Both the position numbers and the translations under genes were made by a program. Below are positions 4,342-19,980 of a DNA stretch of 49,442 nt, piece after piece. The first letter of the stretch is position 1. Each line of letters opens with the position of its first letter. The notes beneath the pieces are model-generated. The model was not told the DNA's origin and ran no database searches. It worked only from the letters and a program-made list of their open reading frames with translations. Source of the DNA: a virus (taxonomy: Duplodnaviria > Heunggongvirae > Uroviricota > Caudoviricetes); IMG/VR virus record IMGVR_UViG_2537561691_000009; one strand, written 5' to 3'.

Positions 4342-4631
4342 TGCTGTTCTCCGATAATACCAAGTTCAAGAAGGGCAATTCTGGAAAGTATGGAATTATC
4401 ATTGAGAAGATAAGGTTCATATTTTCTCATCTTAATGGCATCTTCCGTAAACTCCCGGTTACTGAGCAGAACACCAATATCAAAACAACCTTCAGACGTA
4501 TTAACGTTTGGTAATAACGTTTCCATTATCGCGTCCTCAACAATGAATTTTGTGATGCGGTGCCTGGTGCCTCCAGGTGACGTTAACCAGTTAACAATTA
4601 ACGCCGGATACAGAGAATCCACCCATAACAC
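4338..4631 (-). CDS. Hypothetical early protein
   Basis: 97-aa ORF in early-left operon; start could be the internal Met. Confidence 0.4.
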   Translation of the reverse strand: MLWVDSLYPALIVNWLTSPGGTRHRITKFIVEDAIMETLLPNVNTSEGCFDIGVLLSNREFTEDAIKMRKYEPYLLNDNSILSRIALLELGIIGEQQ

Positions 4632-4888
4632 TGTTTTTGGTTTTAACTGTTCCGCGTGCGCTCAGCCGCATTCACCACATCACAAAATTCACTTTAAAAA
4701 GGGCGGCAGAGCAGTCACGGAGTAAAACTGATACCGCCAAACGTCACCAGAAAATTGATAACAGAGGGCGTTGCAGCGGAGTTGTCACTTAAGCGTATGG
4801 TCAACCTGACAACCCGGTGTCCTCAACGGAGGAAGAAATAACCCCGCCATACTTACCGCCGCGCCATTTCGCGGAGTGCCACAACCGG

Positions 4889-4950: not shown

Positions 4951-5091
4951 TCGCTTTATGCCCTGACTTTTCAGGGACATATCCTTTCAGTAAACTGTCA
5001 GTGCCGGATGTTCACCCGTGTCCGGCGCACGCACTCCACCTGACCCGTGGAGAACTCCTTAATTACCAACCTTAGCTTCGTTGGTTAGCTA

Positions 5092-5310
5092 TTAACGCGG
5101 GTATGTAACCATTCTGGCAATGCTTAATGCCGCTGCTTTTTCCAGCCTGGTGATATCCTGCTCCAGAGCGGACAGATTTTCAGCCTGCTTAGTCCTGGCT
5201 TCATTGGCCCATTTCAGATCCTGCGCTGCATTAATTTTCTGGCGCATCCACTCATAAAGTTCATCATCGGTATAGTCTGGCGCGATGATGACGGGTTCTC
5301 GTTTCTGCAT
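5092..5310 (-). CDS. Hypothetical early protein
   Basis: 72-aa ORF, coiled-coil-like composition. Confidence 0.5.
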   Translation of the reverse strand: MQKREPVIIAPDYTDDELYEWMRQKINAAQDLKWANEARTKQAENLSALEQDITRLEKAAALSIARMVTYPR

Positions 5311-5339
5311 ACTGATTCCTCGCGGTGCTGCTTCGCTTA

Positions 5340-10247: not shown

Positions 10248-10379
10248 ATACAGCGAACGCCATTGGTTTAGTTGGATATTTACTGTGCCGGACAAAAACG
10301 GTTTGCGGGGAAATCTTAGTTAAGTAGAATGACTGCGGGTGCTTGAGGCTATCTGTCTCAGGCATGAACACCAAAAGGC

Positions 10380-10460
10380 AGATAGAGAAAAGCCCCAGTT
10401 AACATTACGCGTCCTGCAAGACGCTTAACATTAATCTGAGGCCATATCTATGCTCTACAC
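10380..10460 (-). ncRNA. sok: Putative Sok-like antisense RNA region (approximate)
   Basis: Inferred from hok/sok locus architecture (antisense RNA overlapping mok start); boundaries not determinable from sequence alone. Confidence 0.3.
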
Positions 10461-10662
10461 ACGTAGGTTAGCCTCTTACGTGCCGAAAGGCAAGGAGAAG
10501 CAGGCTATGAAGCAGCAAAAGGCGATGCTAATCGCCCTGATCGTCATCTGTTTAACCGTCATAGTGACGGCACTGGTAACGAGGAAAGACCTCTGCGAGG
10601 TACGAATCCGAACCGGCCAGACGGAGGTCGCTGTCTTCACAGCTTACGAACCTGAGGAGTAA
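10450..10662 (+). CDS. mok: Mok (modulator of killing) overlapping reading frame
   Basis: 70-aa ORF in frame with and extending upstream of hok. Confidence 0.55.
   Translation: MLYTRRLASYVPKGKEKQAMKQQKAMLIALIVICLTVIVTALVTRKDLCEVRIRTGQTEVAVFTAYEPEE
10507..10662 (+). CDS. hok: Hok/Gef family type I toxin, 51 aa
   Basis: MKQQKAMLIALIVICLTVIVTALVTRKDLCEVRIRTGQTEVAVFTAYEPEE has Hok-family TM helix and conserved C-terminal motif; 5' leader resembles hok mRNA leaders. Confidence 0.85.
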   Translation: MKQQKAMLIALIVICLTVIVTALVTRKDLCEVRIRTGQTEVAVFTAYEPEE

Positions 10663-12161: not shown

Positions 12162-12527
12162 ATGACTGAACGCATAGAATTTGTTTTGCCTTACCCGCCA
12201 ACGGTGAACACTTACTGGCGACGTCGTGGCAGCACATATTTTGTATCAAAAGCCGGTGAGCGTTATCGCCGTGATGTGGCGCTTATTGTTCGCCAGCAGC
12301 GGCTGAAATTAAACCTGTCCGGAAGGCTGGCGATAAAGATTATTGCAGAGCCACCGGATAAACGTCGTCGTGACCTGGACAATATCCTGAAAGCACCACT
12401 GGATGCGCTGACGCATGCCGGACTTCTCATAGACGACGAGCAGTTTGATGAAATCAATATTGTGCGCGGTCAGCGCGTTCCTGGGGGGCGGCTGGGCGTG
12501 AAGATTTACAAAATTGAGAGTGAGTGA
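12162..12527 (+). CDS. rusA: Holliday junction resolvase RusA
   Basis: 121-aa ORF with RusA-like sequence (LPYPPTVNTYWR..., acidic catalytic residues); nin-region position. Confidence 0.85.
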   Translation: MTERIEFVLPYPPTVNTYWRRRGSTYFVSKAGERYRRDVALIVRQQRLKLNLSGRLAIKIIAEPPDKRRRDLDNILKAPLDALTHAGLLIDDEQFDEINIVRGQRVPGGRLGVKIYKIESE

Positions 12528-12535
12528 TCGTAAAT

Positions 12536-13081
12536 ATGATATATCCGGAAATTACAGGCAAAAGCGGCGAGCATTTACGTCTAAAAACGCTGGAAGCCGT
12601 CTGGATCCAGGGGAAATTACGGATGTGGGGGCGTTGGTCGTACATAGGTGGTGGCAAACCAGGAAATATGTTCAATCAGTTGCTGGCATCCAAAACACTT
12701 ACAAAAACTGCGATCAATGAAGCTCTGCGCAGAATAAAAAAATCAGGGATTGATAAAACTGAGCTGGAAGCGTTTTTGCGTGAGATGATCAACAGCAAGC
12801 AAAAGAGCGGGCTGGCTTATTGTACTGATGCCGAGGCGTTATGTATCGATCGGGTAATTAGTAAAGTGTTGGCAGAGCATCCGGGATTGATTTGTATCCT
12901 CCGACAAAGATATGAAGGGCTGGGAATGAGCAAGCTGAAAATGGCAGAACAGTTAAAAAAGAATCACCCTGACTGGAGCCTGAAAACTTGTAGAAATCGC
13001 ATTGATGTTTGGTTGGCGATGGCTGAAACCATGCTTTTCCTTCCAATGTGCGTGGCACTTCGGTGCTTTTCTGATAACTGA
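12536..13081 (+). CDS. Putative late-gene antiterminator Q
   Basis: About 181 aa directly after rusA; RMWGRWSY motif reminiscent of Q-family antiterminators; position before late/lysis region. Confidence 0.6.
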   Translation: MIYPEITGKSGEHLRLKTLEAVWIQGKLRMWGRWSYIGGGKPGNMFNQLLASKTLTKTAINEALRRIKKSGIDKTELEAFLREMINSKQKSGLAYCTDAEALCIDRVISKVLAEHPGLICILRQRYEGLGMSKLKMAEQLKKNHPDWSLKTCRNRIDVWLAMAETMLFLPMCVALRCFSDN

Positions 13082-13109
13082 TGATAGAAGTGCATCAGCT
13101 ATCAATCTT

Positions 13110-13138
13110 GTTGACGTTCATCAAGGTCTGGACAATAC
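13110..13138 (+). promoter_or_regulatory. Candidate sigma70 promoter downstream of Q (ttgacg-17 nt-aatact), possible pR'-like late promoter
   Basis: -35/-10-like hexamers read by eye with 17-bp spacing; untested. Confidence 0.25.
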
Positions 13139-13170
13139 TTACGTTAAGTTCCAACATATGGAAGATAAGA

Positions 13171-14361
13171 ATGATATTTACACGATTGAGATTTATCAAT
13201 TTGTACGCTTTTGAGGATGCAGAGCTTAACCTGTCCTATCCAAGGAAACCTGTAAACATGCCTCTTGATGGGGAGTTTTTGGCTGGACGGCCTAAATTTT
13301 ACTATAAAAAAGTCTGTATCATAACGGGGGGAAATGCTTCAGGCAAGACGTCACTAGGGCGAATTCTTTGTGGAATTCAGGTGTTTCTAAGAACCAAAGA
13401 GTTGCGGAGTAATCTGCGAGTGAATAATAAAAATAATGATGCTTCGTTTGAAGTAGACTTTGCTACGGAGGAACATTTTCATCATCGTTTGTATGTACGC
13501 TTTGCTACCAGTGAAGGCGGAGCGCACATAATCAAAGAAATTAAATATGGTTTTGTTCAAATAGCATTAAATGATTCTTGCTATAAAACCACAGAAAAAC
13601 TGAATCAACTCTTTTCTGGAAGGGCCCCAGGAGATACAGAATATTTTTTTCAGGAACTAGCTACTGATAGCGAACCAGTTGTATTGGAGTTTTTCAAGCA
13701 ACTTAAGTTTTTTGGTGGATGGTACTATTTGTTGTCTGAAACTAAAGAAAGTACCACTGCAATTTCAGGAATGAATAAAAATATTCTTGAAAGGATAATT
13801 CGCACTTTCGATTCAAGTATTATAGGAGTTACCGAGATGCTGGAGTCTGAAAGTGACGGGGATGAAAATAAATCATCTGCGGTTTATCTGATTAAATTTA
13901 AAAACTCTGATTCTCTTGTCGTTACCAGTAAAGGTGAAATAATTAACTCAGACCGTCTTTCTCGAGGAACATACGAGGCAGTGACGGTAGCGCATTTTAT
14001 AAGCGCTATTATCTCTGATTGTGAAAGACTAGGTAAGCAATCTCTAATACCATCAATGACTTATTTTCTTGACGAGAAATTGGCTTATACACATTCAGAG
14101 TTAGAGCGTATGATTGTGGCGCTGATTATATCTAATTTGAAAGAAAATACTCAGTTTTTCTATACAACGCATAACATGGATATTTTTGAGTTGGATCTGC
14201 CTGTTCACTCGTTCATTTTTATTAAAAAAACGAAAGACTATTCGGAGTTTGTTGAAGCAAATTCAGTTGTTAAAAAAAATGACCGTAGCATGCGAAACGC
14301 TGTTGAGAGAGATGTCTTTGGTGTCTTACCTGACACATCATTAGTATCGGAGCTACTCTGA
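13171..14361 (+). CDS. P-loop ABC-type ATPase (AAA_21/AAA_15-like; AbiLi/RloA/AriA-like)
   Basis: Walker A GGNASGKTS near N-terminus; later YFLDE (Walker B-like) and TTHN (H-loop-like); start placed at MIFTRLRFINLY; AT-rich codon usage. Confidence 0.75.
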   Translation: MIFTRLRFINLYAFEDAELNLSYPRKPVNMPLDGEFLAGRPKFYYKKVCIITGGNASGKTSLGRILCGIQVFLRTKELRSNLRVNNKNNDASFEVDFATEEHFHHRLYVRFATSEGGAHIIKEIKYGFVQIALNDSCYKTTEKLNQLFSGRAPGDTEYFFQELATDSEPVVLEFFKQLKFFGGWYYLLSETKESTTAISGMNKNILERIIRTFDSSIIGVTEMLESESDGDENKSSAVYLIKFKNSDSLVVTSKGEIINSDRLSRGTYEAVTVAHFISAIISDCERLGKQSLIPSMTYFLDEKLAYTHSELERMIVALIISNLKENTQFFYTTHNMDIFELDLPVHSFIFIKKTKDYSEFVEANSVVKKNDRSMRNAVERDVFGVLPDTSLVSELL

Positions 14362-14894
14362 TGGCGGGGTTGTCTAAAATAAGAATAATTTTTGTCGAAG
14401 GTGAAACAGAAAACTCTCTTTTTCAGAAGATGAAACAACAGAGAGTTATTGATGCCAAATCAATTGTAAAAAGAAACTTTTGGCAAGAGAGCATAAGAAA
14501 TTATGCGATTACTATTCCGAAGGGAAGTGATATACTAATTGTCTTTGATAGTGATGAAGTGGAGCAATCTGCAAGATTCATTGAAAATGTAAAGTTCCTT
14601 AAAAACAGAGGGCATAAAGTTTATCTTTTGCAGCAGAAAAGAAATTTTGAGGAGGAGTTGGCCTGGTGTTGCGGAATTCCTGTAAAAAAACTAATTGCTG
14701 GGTTCTGTGCAAAAAAAACATCGGGTATAAATGATTTCAAGAGAGATTTTATTGCTTGTAACAATCAACTTTCAAAGTTACTGAAAATGGGCATGCAGGA
14801 AACTAAGTGGTTTACAAGAGATTTACATACTGTATTGGAGCCTGTTGCAAGTTTTAAGTCATCTTTTTCTAAACATTTCAGGTTAACAAGATGA
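14361..14894 (+). CDS. Small Toprim-like protein (RloB/AbiLii/OLD-Toprim-like), 177 aa
   Basis: N-terminal IIFVEGETE plus downstream VFDSDE (acidic E...DxD Toprim-like pattern); start ATG overlaps ATPase stop (TGATG). Confidence 0.65.
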   Translation: MAGLSKIRIIFVEGETENSLFQKMKQQRVIDAKSIVKRNFWQESIRNYAITIPKGSDILIVFDSDEVEQSARFIENVKFLKNRGHKVYLLQQKRNFEEELAWCCGIPVKKLIAGFCAKKTSGINDFKRDFIACNNQLSKLLKMGMQETKWFTRDLHTVLEPVASFKSSFSKHFRLTR

Positions 14895-15027: not shown

Positions 15028-15054
15028 AGAACCCGCTTTATGCGGGTTTTTTTA
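15028..15054 (+). terminator. Rho-independent terminator after the ATPase/Toprim cassette
   Basis: aacccgc-ttta-tgcgggtttttttat hairpin with T-run. Confidence 0.7.
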
Positions 15055-15176
15055 TGCCTGAAAAACGGCACAGAACATTAAACGCGCTGGTAGTTGTGAA
15101 TACTGGTCTTTCAGCTTGCTGGCTTTTTCGACAAGAGGTATTGGTATGTCACGTTAACCGGAAAAGGGAAAAAGGC

Positions 15177-15374
15177 ATGCTAAAACAGCAGGATATGACC
15201 GAAACCGCCAGAGTGGTGTTTAATGAATTAAGCGTCACCGAACCGGCGACCGTCGGGGAAATTGCGCAGAATACTTACCTTTCACGCGAACGCTGCCAGT
15301 TAATACTGACTCAGCTTGTTATGGCGGGTCTGGCAGATTATCAGTTCGGTTGTTACAGACGCCTTCCGCAGTGA
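15177..15374 (+). CDS. Small putative wHTH protein, 65 aa
   Basis: Start at MLKQQD with aaggga SD; upstream of methyltransferase. Confidence 0.45.
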   Translation: MLKQQDMTETARVVFNELSVTEPATVGEIAQNTYLSRERCQLILTQLVMAGLADYQFGCYRRLPQ

Positions 15375-15524
15375 AGGCTTTTTAATTTGTGGTAATGGGC
15401 GGCTGGTGGGGGTTAGCGGCACCTGCCAGCCATCTGCTCATGCGTTGGGGTCACAAGCAAACCTCAGGCCCATCTGCTTTGCGCAAAAGCGGTATGAGCC
15501 TATCAGAGAAGTGCTTATTGATCT

Positions 15525-16574
15525 ATGGCTAATACTGTAAAAATATCCAGTTGTGAGTTAATCAACGCTGATTGCCTGGAATTTATCCAGACCTTACCGG
15601 AAAACTCTGTCGATCTTATAGTCACAGACCCGCCATACTTTAAAGTGAAACCCGAGGGCTGGGATAACCAGTGGAAGGGCGACGATGATTACCTGAAGTG
15701 GCTGGACCAGTGTCTGGCGCAGTTCTGGCGGGTGCTGAAACCTGTCGGAAGTCTTTACCTGTTCTGTGGTCATCGCCTGGCATCTGATATCGAAATCATG
15801 ATGCGTGAACGCTTCAGTGTGCTGAACCATATTATCTGGGCGAAGCCGTCCGGACGCTGGAACGGATGCAACAAGGAAAGCCTGCGGGCGTATTCCCCCG
15901 CCACAGAGCGCATTCTGTTCGCGGAACATTATCAGGGGCCGTATCGTCCGAAAGATGCCGGGTATGCGGCGAAGGGCAGTGCACTGAAACAGCATGTGAT
16001 GGCCCCGCTGATTTCTTACTTTCGTGATGCGCGCGCGGCCCTGGGGATAACGGCAAAACAGATTGCAGATGCCACAGGAAAGAAAAACATGGTGTCGCAC
16101 TGGTTCAGTGCCAGTCAGTGGCAGCTACCGAACGAAAGCGATTATCTGAAATTACAGTCGCTGTTTGCCCGGGTGGCAGAAGAGAAACATCAGCGCGGTG
16201 AACTGGAAAAGCCCCACCACCAGCTGGTGGATACGTATACGTCACTGAACCGGCAGTATGTGGAGCTGCAGAGTGAATATAAGCATCTGCGGCGGTATTT
16301 TGGTGTGACGGCGCAGGTGCCGTACACGGATGTGTGGACACATAAACCGGTGCAGTTCTATCCCGGGAAACATCCGTGCGAAAAACCGGCAGAAATGCTG
16401 CAGCAGATAATCAGCGCAAGCAGTCGTCCGGGAGACCTGGTTGCAGATTTTTTTATGGGCTCAGGTTCAACGGTAAAAGCTGCACTGGCGCTCGGGCGTC
16501 GTGCGATTGGCGTTGAACTGGAGACCGGACGTTTTGAGCAGACAGTCAGGGAAGTTCAGGATTTAATCGTTTGA
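15525..16574 (+). CDS. DNA N6-adenine methyltransferase (DPPY motif)
   Basis: 349-aa ORF with VTDPPYF catalytic motif near N-terminus and SAM-binding-like region near C-terminus; no adjacent restriction endonuclease evident. Confidence 0.85.
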   Translation: MANTVKISSCELINADCLEFIQTLPENSVDLIVTDPPYFKVKPEGWDNQWKGDDDYLKWLDQCLAQFWRVLKPVGSLYLFCGHRLASDIEIMMRERFSVLNHIIWAKPSGRWNGCNKESLRAYSPATERILFAEHYQGPYRPKDAGYAAKGSALKQHVMAPLISYFRDARAALGITAKQIADATGKKNMVSHWFSASQWQLPNESDYLKLQSLFARVAEEKHQRGELEKPHHQLVDTYTSLNRQYVELQSEYKHLRRYFGVTAQVPYTDVWTHKPVQFYPGKHPCEKPAEMLQQIISASSRPGDLVADFFMGSGSTVKAALALGRRAIGVELETGRFEQTVREVQDLIV

Positions 16575-16623
16575 AACGGATGAGATTGCAGAATTAATTA
16601 CGCACCATTATTATTCTGCTCCC

Positions 16624-16699
16624 GGCCCTTTAGCTCAGTGGTGAGAGCGAGCGACTCATAATCGCCAGGTCGCTGGTTCAAATCCAGCAAGGGCCACCA
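16624..16699 (+). tRNA. tRNA with CAU anticodon (Ile2/ileZ-like, or Met)
   Basis: Cloverleaf parsed by hand: acceptor ggccctt/aagggcc, anticodon loop ctCATaa, T-loop ttcaaat, 3' CCA. Confidence 0.8.
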
Positions 16700-16706
16700 T
16701 CACATA

Positions 16707-16783
16707 CCGCCATTAGCTCATCAGGAAAGAGCGCCAGCCTTCGAAGCTGGTTGCGCGGGGTTCAAGTCCCCGATGGCGGTCCA
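16707..16783 (+). tRNA. tRNA-Arg (anticodon UCG)
   Basis: Acceptor ccgccat/atggcgg, anticodon loop ctTCGaa, T-loop ttcaagt, 3' CCA. Confidence 0.8.
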
Positions 16784-16796
16784 TTATCTGCATCAT

Positions 16797-16873
16797 GCGT
16801 TGTTAGCTCAGCCGGACAGAGCAATTGCCTTCTAAGCAATCGGTCACTGGTTCGAATCCAGTACAACGCGCCA
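16797..16873 (+). tRNA. tRNA-Arg (anticodon UCU)
   Basis: Acceptor gcgttgt/acaacgc, anticodon stem attgc/gcaat, loop ctTCTaa, T-loop ttcgaat, 3' CCA. Confidence 0.8.
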
Positions 16874-17111
16874 CACTTATTTTCCCTGGCTCGCTTTTGT
16901 GGGCCTTTTTTTTAAATGTCTCACAATTTAGGCGGTTGACTGTTGTCTGGTTTGCGGGGAGTTTGTTAAAAGAAACTGGCATGGTGAATCCCCCTGTGCG
17001 GAGGGGCAATCAGCGAGTAGGTATATGGGATAATCGCGGATTCAGGTGCTGGTACTGAATTCACCGGGAGGCACCCGGCACCATGCAATGGCACATAGCG
17101 CCACTCTCCAG

Positions 17112-17133
17112 CCCCTCTCCGGAGGGGCTGTTT
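17112..17133 (+). terminator. Possible terminator hairpin (cccctc-tccg-gagggg + T-rich tail)
   Basis: GC stem-loop followed by ctgtttat. Confidence 0.35.
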
Positions 17134-17164
17134 ATATTGATTTTGTCAGATGTGAGTAAACTGC

Positions 17165-17500
17165 TTATGGACTTTGTTGTTTTAGCCCATAAGGACATAT
17201 TTGCAGAGTGCAACGGTTATTAAAGCATTCATTCAATACGTTATCTGTATTTGTAGGGCATTCCTGGCTGTTTTTGATTAAATTCCAGAATGTTTTATTG
17301 AATGGTACTACGTTGTAAATGGTTACAGGTAGCACTTTGTTATTGAGCATGATGCCTGTGTGAGTCAGTGTAAATATACTTTCAGGAGGTAAGAAAGCAT
17401 CCGATTGATACCAGATTATTAATTTTATTTTACTCCATATGACTGAAAAAGATATTCCGCATGATGGCTGGATAACTGTATCAATCACAATCCACTTCAT
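17165..17500 (-). CDS. Hypothetical Cys-containing protein in AT-rich island (occupies the position stx genes take in Stx phages)
   Basis: 111-aa ORF with aagga SD 6 nt upstream of ATG; AT-rich; opposite strand to late operon. Confidence 0.5.
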
Positions 17501-17745
17501 TTAGTTTCCTTGTTTATGCCTTGCTGGTGATGTTCTGAAAAGTATAAATGATATTTTTGATTGTAAACCATAGAGCAGAATTATTTTTCTGATGTTGTTT
17601 ATTGTTTATTTAAATGCAGGGTGGTTTATATCTCGTCTTGTAGTTTATCCATGCATATCTGCTTGATGATGAGGTTTTTATTTAAGGTATGGTTTTGTGT
17701 TTTTTCTGTATTACATGTCAGGTATTTTAAAGAATCATTTTTCAG

Positions 17746-19614
17746 ATGGTGGAAAGAACCATGGCATTTAAACACTATGATGTTGTCAGGGCGGCGTCGC
17801 CGTCAGATCTTGCGGAAAAGCTGACACATAAACTGAAAGAGGGCTGGCAGCCGTTTGGTAGTCCGGTGGCCATAACCCCTTATACCCTGATGCAGGCGAT
17901 TGCAGCAGAAGGTGATGTGGTCGTCAGTGGTGCAACTGAGCCGGAGTGGTACTACGTCATCGTACTGGCCGGGCAATCCAATGCCATGGCTTACGGTGAA
18001 GGGCTTCCGCTTCCGGATTCTTACGATGCGCCCCACCCACGCATTAAGCAACTGGCCCGTCGCAACACAGTGACTCCCGGTGGTAAAGCATGCGCATTTA
18101 ACGACATCATTCCGGCAGACCACTGCCTGCATGATGTTCAGGATATGAGCGCACTGAATCATCCGAAGGCAGACCTGAGCAAAGGGCAGTACGGCTGTGT
18201 CGGCCAGGGCTTACATATTGCCAAAAAACTGCTTCCGTATATCCCGAATAACGCGGGGATCCTGCTGGTACCATGCTGTCGTGGTGGTTCGGCATTCACC
18301 CAGGGCGCGGAGGGGACATTCAGTGCGGACACGGGGGCCAGCCAGGATTCGGCACGCTGGGGTGTGGGTAAACCGTTATATCAGGACCTGATCGCACGCA
18401 CCAAAGCGGCATTACAGAAGAACCCGAAAAATGTGTTGCTGGCGGTGTGCTGGATGCAGGGCGAATTTGACATGAGCGCTGCCACCTACGCACAGCAACC
18501 GGACCTGTTCACGGCCATGCTGAAGCAGTTCCGTACTGACCTTTCCGGATTTAACGCGCAGTGCCATGGCGGCAGTGCTGCAGTTGTACCGTGGATTTGT
18601 GGCGACACGACGTATTACTGGAAAAACACATACGGCACACAGTATGACTCCGTCTACGGCGCATACAAAAACAGGGAGAGCGACAACGTTTTCTTTGTGC
18701 CGTTCATGACCGACGGTAACGGCAACAACACGCCCACCAACTTACCGGCAGAAGACCCGGATATTGCTGATGCAGGTTATTACGGCGCGCAATCCCGTAG
18801 TAATGGTAATTGGGTATCGTCAAACCGCCCGACACATTTCAGTTCATGGGCGCGCAGGAGCATTATTCCGGATCGTATGGCAACCGCTATTCTGAACGCA
18901 GCCGGGCGCACCTCAGCCTTCATCAGTGGTAAGGCACCGGAAATCAAACCCTCGCCCGGCGTCGACACGCCATCGGGGCCGTCTGAAGATGCATCCGTAC
19001 GCACAATCTCCCTGTTGCCGACAGCCGGAGAGGCTGCTGCGCAGGGCTGGACCATTAAGGACGGCGGAATTCAGTTGTCGGGTGGTGTATTTAAGATCAC
19101 CAAGCAGAGCAATAAAACTTGGTCCCTGATGCATCCGGTGGATGACGCAGTCTCCCTGCTGACACGGGGTGGCAGACTGAGCTGTAAGTTTCGACTGTCA
19201 GGCGCACTGACCAACAACCAGTTCGGTCTGGGAATTTATCTGTATACCGATGTAGCGTTACCTGACGTCGTGGCGATGACCGGGACTGGTAACCCGTTCC
19301 TGATGTCGTTCTTCACCCAGACCACAGACGGCAAACTGAATCTGATGCATCACAGGAAAGCAGGAAACACAAAGTTGGGCGAGTTCGGGAATTACAGTAA
19401 CGACTGGCAGACGCTGGAGCTGGTGTTCACCGCCGGCAGTGCCACGGTTACTCCGAAACTGAATGGAGTGGCTGGCCCGGCATTCCAGGTCATAAAAGAC
19501 AGTCTGACACTGGGGCTGAATGCGCTGACGCTGACGGATATTACCAAAAATGCAGCGTATGGCGTTGAGATAGAAAGTCTGGTGCTGGAGATAAATGCAC
19601 CAGCATCATCATAA
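17746..19614 (+). CDS. nanS-p: Prophage sialate O-acetylesterase-like protein (NanS-p-like; SGNH/DUF303-type with GQSN motif)
   Basis: 622-aa ORF with GQSNA esterase motif; same position downstream of the tRNA genes as nanS-p in Stx-type lambdoid phages. Confidence 0.75.
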   Translation: MVERTMAFKHYDVVRAASPSDLAEKLTHKLKEGWQPFGSPVAITPYTLMQAIAAEGDVVVSGATEPEWYYVIVLAGQSNAMAYGEGLPLPDSYDAPHPRIKQLARRNTVTPGGKACAFNDIIPADHCLHDVQDMSALNHPKADLSKGQYGCVGQGLHIAKKLLPYIPNNAGILLVPCCRGGSAFTQGAEGTFSADTGASQDSARWGVGKPLYQDLIARTKAALQKNPKNVLLAVCWMQGEFDMSAATYAQQPDLFTAMLKQFRTDLSGFNAQCHGGSAAVVPWICGDTTYYWKNTYGTQYDSVYGAYKNRESDNVFFVPFMTDGNGNNTPTNLPAEDPDIADAGYYGAQSRSNGNWVSSNRPTHFSSWARRSIIPDRMATAILNAAGRTSAFISGKAPEIKPSPGVDTPSGPSEDASVRTISLLPTAGEAAAQGWTIKDGGIQLSGGVFKITKQSNKTWSLMHPVDDAVSLLTRGGRLSCKFRLSGALTNNQFGLGIYLYTDVALPDVVAMTGTGNPFLMSFFTQTTDGKLNLMHHRKAGNTKLGEFGNYSNDWQTLELVFTAGSATVTPKLNGVAGPAFQVIKDSLTLGLNALTLTDITKNAAYGVEIESLVLEINAPASS

Positions 19615-19699
19615 AAAGTGAGCCAGTCAAATGGAAGGTATCGTTAAACTCACCGGTAGTGTCAGTGGGTCGTCTGAGATGCCTGCATGAGTTATCAGA

Positions 19700-19729
19700 G
19701 CCATCAGTACTTAACTGGTGGCTTTTTTT
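19700..19729 (+). terminator. Rho-independent terminator-like hairpin after nanS-p (gccatcag-loop-ctggtggc + T7)
   Basis: Stem with one G-U pair followed by ttttttt. Confidence 0.5.
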
Positions 19730-19764
19730 ATTGTTGTCAGCTTCCGGATAACGGGAGACGGGGT

Positions 19765-19980
19765 ATGTACCAGATGGAAAAAATCACAACAGGTGTGTCA
19801 TACACCACGTCAGCGGTGGGAACGGGCTACTGGTTCCTGCAGTTGCTGGACAGGGTTTCCCCGTCTCAGTGGGCGGCAATAGGCGTGCTGGGGAGTCTGC
19901 TGTTTGGGCTGCTGACATATCTGACTAACCTGTATTTCAAAATCAGAGAGGACCGTCGTAAGGCTGCACGGGGAGAGTAA
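19765..19980 (+). CDS. S: Holin (S-like, dual-start MYQMEK motif)
   Basis: 71 aa with two closely spaced Met starts, TM segments, charged C-terminus; SD gggagacgggg; first gene of lysis cassette. Confidence 0.85.

Follow-up and report, generated by a model that had tools for sequence, protein, structure and literature searches.

What occupies the late accessory region of an stx-negative relative of the Stx phages, at the place where toxin genes might be expected? The question is raised by a 49,442-nucleotide stretch of caudoviricete DNA (IMG/VR record IMGVR_UViG_2537561691_000009; the window hereafter), in which a methyltransferase gene, three tRNA genes, a minus-strand open reading frame (ORF) of 111 aa, an AT-rich stretch and a nanS-p-like gene were all found where a sequence-only reading had placed them (Table 1). 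In that reading, the ORF was alternative cargo in the toxin slot, to be distinguished from a deletion scar by alignment with Stx-phage late regions. The analysis leads with high confidence to a different map. The segment is a lambdoid late-operon accessory ('moron') zone, in which the known sRNA STnc100 and the known gene iraL lie tail-to-tail and are probably transcribed independently, next to an stx insertion point that is unoccupied.

Table 1. Features of the late accessory region, in coordinates of the window
Feature	Position	Strand	Basis
DNA N6/N4 methyltransferase, late accessory region	15525..16574	+	PF01555 N6_N4_Mtase, E 3.6e-45; PADLOC MTase_II, 546 bits
tRNA with CAU anticodon, ileZ-type tRNA-Ile2	16624..16699	+	ARAGORN calls Met; PGAP tRNA-Ile (EC931 locus); ileZ in 933W
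tRNA-Arg (UCG), argN-type	16707..16783	+	ARAGORN, Rfam, 933W
tRNA-Arg (UCU), argO-type	16797..16873	+	ARAGORN, Rfam, 933W
Intrinsic terminator after the tRNA genes, 7-bp stem and eight-T run	16888..16913	+	homologous to the 933W 'terminator upstream of the stx genes'
Unoccupied stx insertion point	16914..16917		blastn breakpoints, junction alignment, no stx remnant
STnc100 (RF02076), PasD-family prophage sRNA	16950..17139	+	Rfam; terminator hairpin 17109-17130
iraL, 111-aa RssB anti-adaptor of the IraM/IraL/RssC family	17165..17500	-	identity to CFT073 IraL, NCBIfam, PDB
iraL 5' UTR, 33 nt, Shine-Dalgarno AAGGA at 17507-17511	17501..17533	-	published CFT073 5' end
Putative iraL promoter: -10 TATACT 17541-17546, -35-like TTTACA 17562-17567, 15-nt spacer	17541..17567	-	read by eye
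AT-rich region (GC ~0.30), upstream of iraL and ahead of nanS-p	17568..17760		base composition
NanS-p homologue, prophage sialate O-acetylesterase (DUF1737, SASA, DUF6645)	17761..19614	+	domains, 933Wp42

The minus-strand gene is identified by its sequence as iraL, a prophage gene that guards RpoS, the stress sigma factor, against degradation. Its product is identical to IraL of CFT073 over 111/111 aa (100%); WP_000871291.1 is one RefSeq protein for both CFT073 and the EC931 locus, the latter being 100% identical. At the DNA level, the block 16909-17980, which includes iraL, has 98.2% nucleotide identity to CFT073, and the gene counts as an iraL allele at the threshold of at least 95% identity to CFT073 iraL that was used in PMC4045071. 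The name was assigned through NCBIfam and direct comparison. Family NF007393 (anti-adapter protein IraM) matches the protein with 162 bits (curated cut-off 121) and over its full length (residues 1-110 on model positions 1-113 of 114); K-12 IraM shares 62% amino acid identity with it over 107 residues; and residues 1-78 match the solved structure of IraM in PDB 8twd (chain 8twd_A, E 9e-32). Pfam and PADLOC searches with the same protein gave no match. IraL was identified and characterised in CFT073 by Hryckowian et al. 2014 (PMC4045071), who reported its interaction with RssB by two-hybrid as well as RpoS stability assays. The half-life of RpoS in log phase was ~5 min in wild-type CFT073 versus ~2.5 min in an iraL deletion mutant, and transfer of iraL with its native promoter to K-12 led to higher log-phase RpoS (PMC4045071). 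By analogy with the identical CFT073 protein, the IraL of the window is predicted to bind RssB and to lengthen the half-life of RpoS. The gene, the activity of its product and its promoter were already published in 2014 and RefSeq carries a name for it; in this respect, there is little new here.

The signals for iraL expression can be read by homology. The gene had been described as well initiated, and AAGGA is indeed found 6 nt ahead of the ATG. [quoted passage not shown] The -10 and -35-like hexamers were read by eye rather than called by a program. Both are unchanged versus CFT073, from which the region upstream of the coding sequence differs by one substitution each in the spacer, the discriminator and the 5' UTR; those in the spacer and discriminator could alter iraL expression. 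The consensus scanner requires a spacer of 16-18 nt and therefore did not list this promoter, and the short spacer of its -35-like hexamer means that promoter strength is not readable from the sequence. Conservation with CFT073 predicts that iraL, present with intact leader and promoter, is active in exponential phase. In the case of the 3' end, the terminator scan found no minus-strand intrinsic terminator for iraL; the STnc100 hairpin also folds on the minus-strand RNA, but there no U tract follows it. Further upstream, there is conservation with the Stx-phage allele in a block at ~17575-17615, which contains a PhoP-box-like repeat at 17596-17612. PhoP boxes were searched for because K-12 iraM is PhoP-dependent, and one-mismatch matches were obtained at 17596-17612 and at the equivalent position in phage 1717, with a window-wide total (13 found versus 10.5 expected) that is at chance level.

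The 870-bp segment downstream of the tRNA genes had been reported to contain no Stx-like ORF, which is borne out, but it is not otherwise empty, and STnc100 had been overlooked. Rfam matches the full-length STnc100 model (132.4 bits, E 5e-29; gathering score 47), and the hairpin and T-rich tail at 17109-17139 are the 3' terminator of this sRNA. A 2026 preprint (10.64898/2026.05.13.724894) relates STnc100, a prophage sRNA, to PasD and reports that it is associated with esterase genes. In Stx2 phages it lies 75 nt downstream of stx2B, and it has been seen by RT-qPCR in vesicles of STEC (PMC12370729); it is also present in 933W and phage 1717, downstream of stxB. In the window, STnc100 and iraL are arranged tail-to-tail, with 25 nt between the 3' end of the sRNA and the iraL stop codon. 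An Rfam search at a relaxed threshold (E <= 1) over 16850-19800, covering AsxR, AgvB and other prophage sRNAs, returned STnc100 alone. A minus-strand pseudo-CDS annotated by PGAP at 16969-17094, wholly within STnc100, was rejected as a probable artefact of annotation.

The position of the missing toxin genes can be located by comparison with phages that carry them. The homology of 933W, phage 1717 (Stx2c) and Stx2_EH2201 (Stx2a) to the window extends across the tRNA genes and their terminator, stops at 16914 and restarts at 16917, where the STnc100 region starts, and in all three phages the gap is filled by ~1332 bp with stxA and stxB. The junction alignment reveals a single, uninterrupted window sequence across 16914/16917. 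Searches of the whole window by tblastn and blastn with StxA2, StxB2 and the stx cassette of 933W yielded chance-level matches only. A short repeat, ATCTG, is found at both ends of the stxAB cassette in 933W and 1717. In CFT073 and many other genomes, the same junction is occupied by a different and unrelated insert of 642 bp, which carries a DUF3927 ORF, and in phage vB_EcoS-640R1 a second copy of STnc100 precedes the one adjacent to iraL on its upstream side; together these indicate that the junction is a general variable point. These alignments place the stx insertion point upstream of STnc100, with stxAB as a clean insertion, and iraL on the other side of the sRNA, ~250 bp beyond.

A tblastn search with IraL against the phage collection gave 46 records. 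The IraL allele itself (98% identity) occurs in four stx-negative phages, and in 41 records, mostly Stx2c phages and some Stx2a phages, a 107-aa allele is found beside stx2 in the same position and orientation. By tblastn, this allele is 60-80% identical to IraL (73.6% in most); by global alignment, the allele of phage 1717 and Stx2_EH2201 has 72% identity to IraL and 65% to IraM. The order is Q, tRNAs, stx2cA, stx2cB, STnc100, iraM-like (opposite strand) and SASA esterase in phage 1717, and Q, hypothetical, DNA methylase, three tRNAs, stx2A, stx2B, iraM (opposite strand) and yjhS in Stx2_EH2201; that of the window is the same minus the stxAB genes. The order Q, methyltransferase, tRNAs, stx and nanS-p, which had been given as typical of 933W-like phages, is seen in Stx2_EH2201; in 933W, Q and the tRNAs are not separated by a methyltransferase. 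In the slot between STnc100 and nanS-p, 933W carries the AsxR sRNA on the minus strand, with stx2 still in place; derivation of this slot from a decayed iraM-like cassette was ruled out, there being no similarity beyond STnc100. Because the stx point lies upstream of STnc100, and because iraM-like genes and stx2 coexist, iraL is no replacement for the toxin genes. The region has two variable points, and iraL adjoins the toxin site without occupying it. The point between the tRNA terminator and STnc100 holds stxAB, the DUF3927 insert, a second STnc100 copy or nothing, and the point between STnc100 and nanS-p holds iraL, an iraM-like allele or AsxR.

The resemblance to Stx phages extends to the flanks, where the methyltransferase, ileZ-argN-argO, STnc100, nanS-p, holin and lysozyme are collinear with Stx2_EH2201 and 1717. 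The description of the prophage as an stx-negative relative is sound for this late accessory region, which is collinear with that of Stx2_EH2201 bar a clean 1.33-kb stxAB indel. Elsewhere, the window is a long-tailed mosaic of the lambda/phage 21 kind, whose early region resembles that of PPompW phages and whose morphogenesis genes are closer to lambda/phage 21 than to 933W; the prophage is related to Stx phages in the mosaic lambdoid sense only. The NanS-p homologue (617/622 aa) has 53% amino acid identity to 933Wp42 over its full length. Its start, which had been set at 17746, is probably 17761: PGAP places it there in the identical EC931 locus, and the alignment with 933W opens at that Met. 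GC content is 0.35 in the iraL coding sequence and 0.30 upstream of it, and 0.33 for the cassette, while the methyltransferase, tRNAs and nanS-p have values of 0.53-0.56. The cassette is missing from 933W and from O157/O55 loci and present in others. A promoter assigned by homology, deviant GC and presence or absence among related phages are typical of a moron, and the iraL cassette appears moron-like in these respects.

The arrangement of tRNAs, STnc100, iraL and nanS-p is common in E. coli. It was detected in 1227/5426 complete genomes, nearly a quarter, with a 1227-bp query (tRNAs, STnc100, iraL and the start of nanS-p; coverage at least 80%) whose length equals the count by coincidence. 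Nine genomes among the matches listed are 100% identical to the query. A spread sample of the genome matches contained window-type loci, CFT073-type loci with the DUF3927 insert, and iraL without tRNAs, while the O157:H7 and O55:H7 loci in the sample have tRNAs, STnc100 and esterase without iraL. The label that PGAP gives to iraL in E. coli genomes is 'anti-adapter protein IraM'.

Comparison with known systems delineates what is shared. The CFT073 locus resembles that of the window in its order (Q, three tRNAs, STnc100, iraL on the opposite strand, nanS-p/DUF1737, holin, lysozyme) and differs from it by the 642-bp insert at the stx junction, by an IS200 at the place of the methyltransferase and by a truncated nanS-p. 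PMC4045071 refers to the iraL locus as the 'potB genomic island' and does not discuss where it lies with respect to the stx site. IraM (YcgW) of K-12, an RssB anti-adaptor induced by Mg2+ starvation, shares with IraL the NF007393 family and an N-terminal motif; the K-12 gene is, however, a different allele whose upstream DNA is unrelated to that of iraL, and it adjoins e14 instead of lying in a late operon. IraM also touches both RssB domains and acts under other conditions than IraL (PMC4045071). The iraM-like genes of phage 1717 (gp43), Stx2_EH2201 and phage 2851 share the slot of iraL, its opposite-strand orientation and its tail-to-tail position with STnc100, but encode 107 aa and coexist with stx2AB; literature searches found no functional study of the Stx-phage iraM-like gene. 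AsxR (RF02703; 933W/Sp5) is an anti-sRNA of 53 nt that occupies the same interval and strand as iraL, has no sequence similarity to the iraL cassette and gave no match in the Rfam search of 16850-19800. The stxAB moron, like iraL, is an accessory cassette of the late operon downstream of ileZ-argN-argO; unlike iraL, it has its own insertion point, is oriented with the late strand and shows no homology to it.

These results bear directly on the proposal that the 111-aa gene is alternative cargo housed in the toxin slot in place of stxAB. Its appeal lies in the low-GC, foreign-looking iraL DNA and in the location of iraL within the tRNA-to-nanS-p interval, which houses stxAB in Stx phages, yet the stx cassette maps upstream of STnc100 and iraL downstream, the 41 phage records combine stx2 with an iraL homologue in the same position and orientation, and 933W retains stx2 with AsxR in the slot of iraL. 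This makes the proposal extremely improbable, and the claim that the gene sits in the toxin slot is not supported.

A deletion scar would imply an ancestor of the Stx2c/Stx2a type with both stx2 and an iraM-like gene, from which stxAB was lost by precise deletion. Such a loss could have been mediated by the ATCTG repeat flanking the cassette in 933W and 1717, and the collinearity with Stx2_EH2201 except for the 1.33-kb cassette is in keeping with it. Against it, the protein and DNA queries for stx remnants gave nothing in the window, and identity to Stx2_EH2201 is 92.7% on the left (15042-16914, including the methyltransferase, which is annotated there as a DNA methylase) versus 68.5% on the right (16917-18894). 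Such unequal identity means that the flanks differ in history, indicating recombination at the junction rather than recent deletion. Moreover, the window encodes the IraL allele, which shares 72% identity with that of the Stx phages and is found in stx-negative phages and genomes, and the 642-bp insert of CFT073 and many genomes at the same junction marks it as a general variable point. A scar is very unlikely on this evidence. There remains the reading of the ORF as a chance or decayed frame in AT-rich intergenic DNA, in a segment that is purely regulatory (sRNA and terminator). AT-rich DNA does yield spurious ORFs on both strands, and neither Pfam nor PADLOC recognised the protein; but a full-length curated NCBIfam match with a PDB homologue, identity to a protein with demonstrated activity (PMC4045071) and an ORF kept intact across three alleles at 60-72% amino acid identity leave this reading a negligible probability. 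Given that the ORF is conserved and that in CFT073 it is both expressed and functional (PMC4045071), it is more than a remnant of stx flanks: it is real cargo, though known cargo.

Altogether, the favoured reading, that of an accessory zone with independently transcribed STnc100 and iraL, leads to a model for the function of iraL in this prophage. IraL would bind the N-terminal receiver domain of the adaptor RssB, and the IraL-bound RssB would stop delivering RpoS to ClpXP, so that RpoS would be stabilised in exponential growth. In the lysogen, iraL would be transcribed from its own sigma-70-type promoter, apart from late transcription (pR'), and its transcript would end at, or overlap, the STnc100 terminator hairpin. 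After induction, Q-antiterminated late transcripts would extend beyond both terminators (16888-16913 and 17109-17139) and across iraL in antisense, which would lower iraL expression.

A bolder proposal, which we consider rather unlikely, is that the conserved convergent pair of STnc100 and iraL (or its iraM-like counterpart) forms one regulatory unit tying host RpoS stability to prophage state, with the corollary, for related loci and not for the window, that the allele next to stx2 contributes to raised RpoS in STEC without iraL. According to this proposal, the lysogen may make iraL from its own promoter, with a 3' end overlapping the STnc100 terminator, and induction may lead to late read-through of both terminators, antisense to iraL, and turn iraL off. 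The third allele, which lies beside stx2 in Stx2c and some Stx2a phages (72% to IraL), may also be the cause of high log-phase RpoS in iraL-less STEC; high log-phase RpoS in some STEC without iraL is an unexplained puzzle in PMC4045071.

The useful outcome of the analysis is that the map of this part of the prophage is corrected: toxin genes and an RpoS stabiliser can sit side by side in one prophage. Since the level of RpoS affects the stress tolerance of STEC, the allele of Stx2c and Stx2a phages is the sole point that might merit experiment.

Nucleotide identity between the window and the Stx2a phage Stx2_EH2201 is 92.7% over 15042-16914 and 68.5% over 16917-18894. Because this drop falls exactly on the stx insertion point, the sequence comparison indicates that a recombination breakpoint is located at 16914/16917. 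In 933W and the Stx2c phage 1717, ATCTG is found at both edges of the stx cassette, whereas the window carries a single AAATG at this place.

The late region is headed by a two-gene insert located immediately 3′ of the Q gene. The first gene encodes a 426-aa AAA ATPase (PADLOC AbiLi, E 9.6e-26; Pfam AAA_15), while the product of the second (177 aa) gives a weak AbiLii match (E 1.7e-3), so that, judged by these matches, the two genes resemble an anti-phage defence pair of the AbiL type. Stx2_EH2201 and the E. coli genome EC931, which has an iraL locus identical to the window's, are without the insert, and the late-region homology that they share with the window begins at 15042. A strong intrinsic terminator coincides with this point, at which late regions from other phages start to match the window, and it may correspond to the tR′-type terminator of the late operon.

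Features of the window and of related phages
Feature	Location	Strand	Details
DicF sRNA	window 4701-4752	-	77 bits
sok antitoxin RNA	window 10337-10512	+	117 bits
Q antiterminator gene	window 12524-13081
Two-gene insert	window 13081-14894		AT-rich, GC 0.36
Intrinsic terminator	window 15030-15053		AACCCGC...GCGGGTT then T run
Structured stretch	window 19615-19767		gap between nanS-p stop and holin start (19768)
AsxR anti-sRNA	933W (L003) 4985-5037	-
Third IraM/IraL allele	phage 1717 (L005) 5001-5324
Third IraM/IraL allele	Stx2_EH2201 (L008) 4501-4824

The gap that follows nanS-p holds a structured stretch that closes with a 12-bp hairpin and then seven U (~19697-19731; fold z-score -2.45); this stretch has no Rfam match at E <= 1. 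Since PasA and PasC are reported to adjoin the holin-lysozyme operon, downstream of the esterase (Pas sRNA preprint, 10.64898/2026.05.13.724894), it may, by analogy of position, encode an sRNA of the PasA/PasC kind. The potB prophage of uropathogenic CFT073 carries the same accessory elements as the window, namely sok and DicF. At the sok position, hokD is annotated in the homologous prophage regions of EC931 and CFT073.

The partial "hypothetical protein" pseudogene that PGAP annotates in the identical loci of EC931 and CFT073 (window 16969-17094, minus strand) is contained entirely in STnc100, antisense to it, and probably represents an artefact of annotation. K-12 iraM (L002 2414-3004) is described as located on the cryptic prophage e14 (PMC4045071), whereas RefSeq annotation places it outside, 268 bp beyond the right end of e14.

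A third IraM/IraL allele adjoins stx2B and STnc100 in Stx2c phages and some Stx2a phages. Its 107-aa product shares 72% identity with IraL and 65% with IraM, and no functional work on this allele turned up in literature searches. STEC strains that lack iraL and show high log-phase RpoS have been reported (PMC4045071). PhoP-box-like direct repeats, TGTTTAttgttTATTTA in the window (17596-17612) and CGTTTAttcttTGTTTA in phage 1717 (L005 4889-4905), occupy homologous positions ~65-80 nt upstream of the iraL and iraM-like TSS, inside a block conserved between the iraL and iraM-like alleles, with the total number of such matches being at chance level.

In 933W, AsxR lies in exactly the STnc100-to-nanS-p interval that iraL fills in the window, and on the same strand, so that opposite-strand cargo has repeatedly used this interval as an insertion point.
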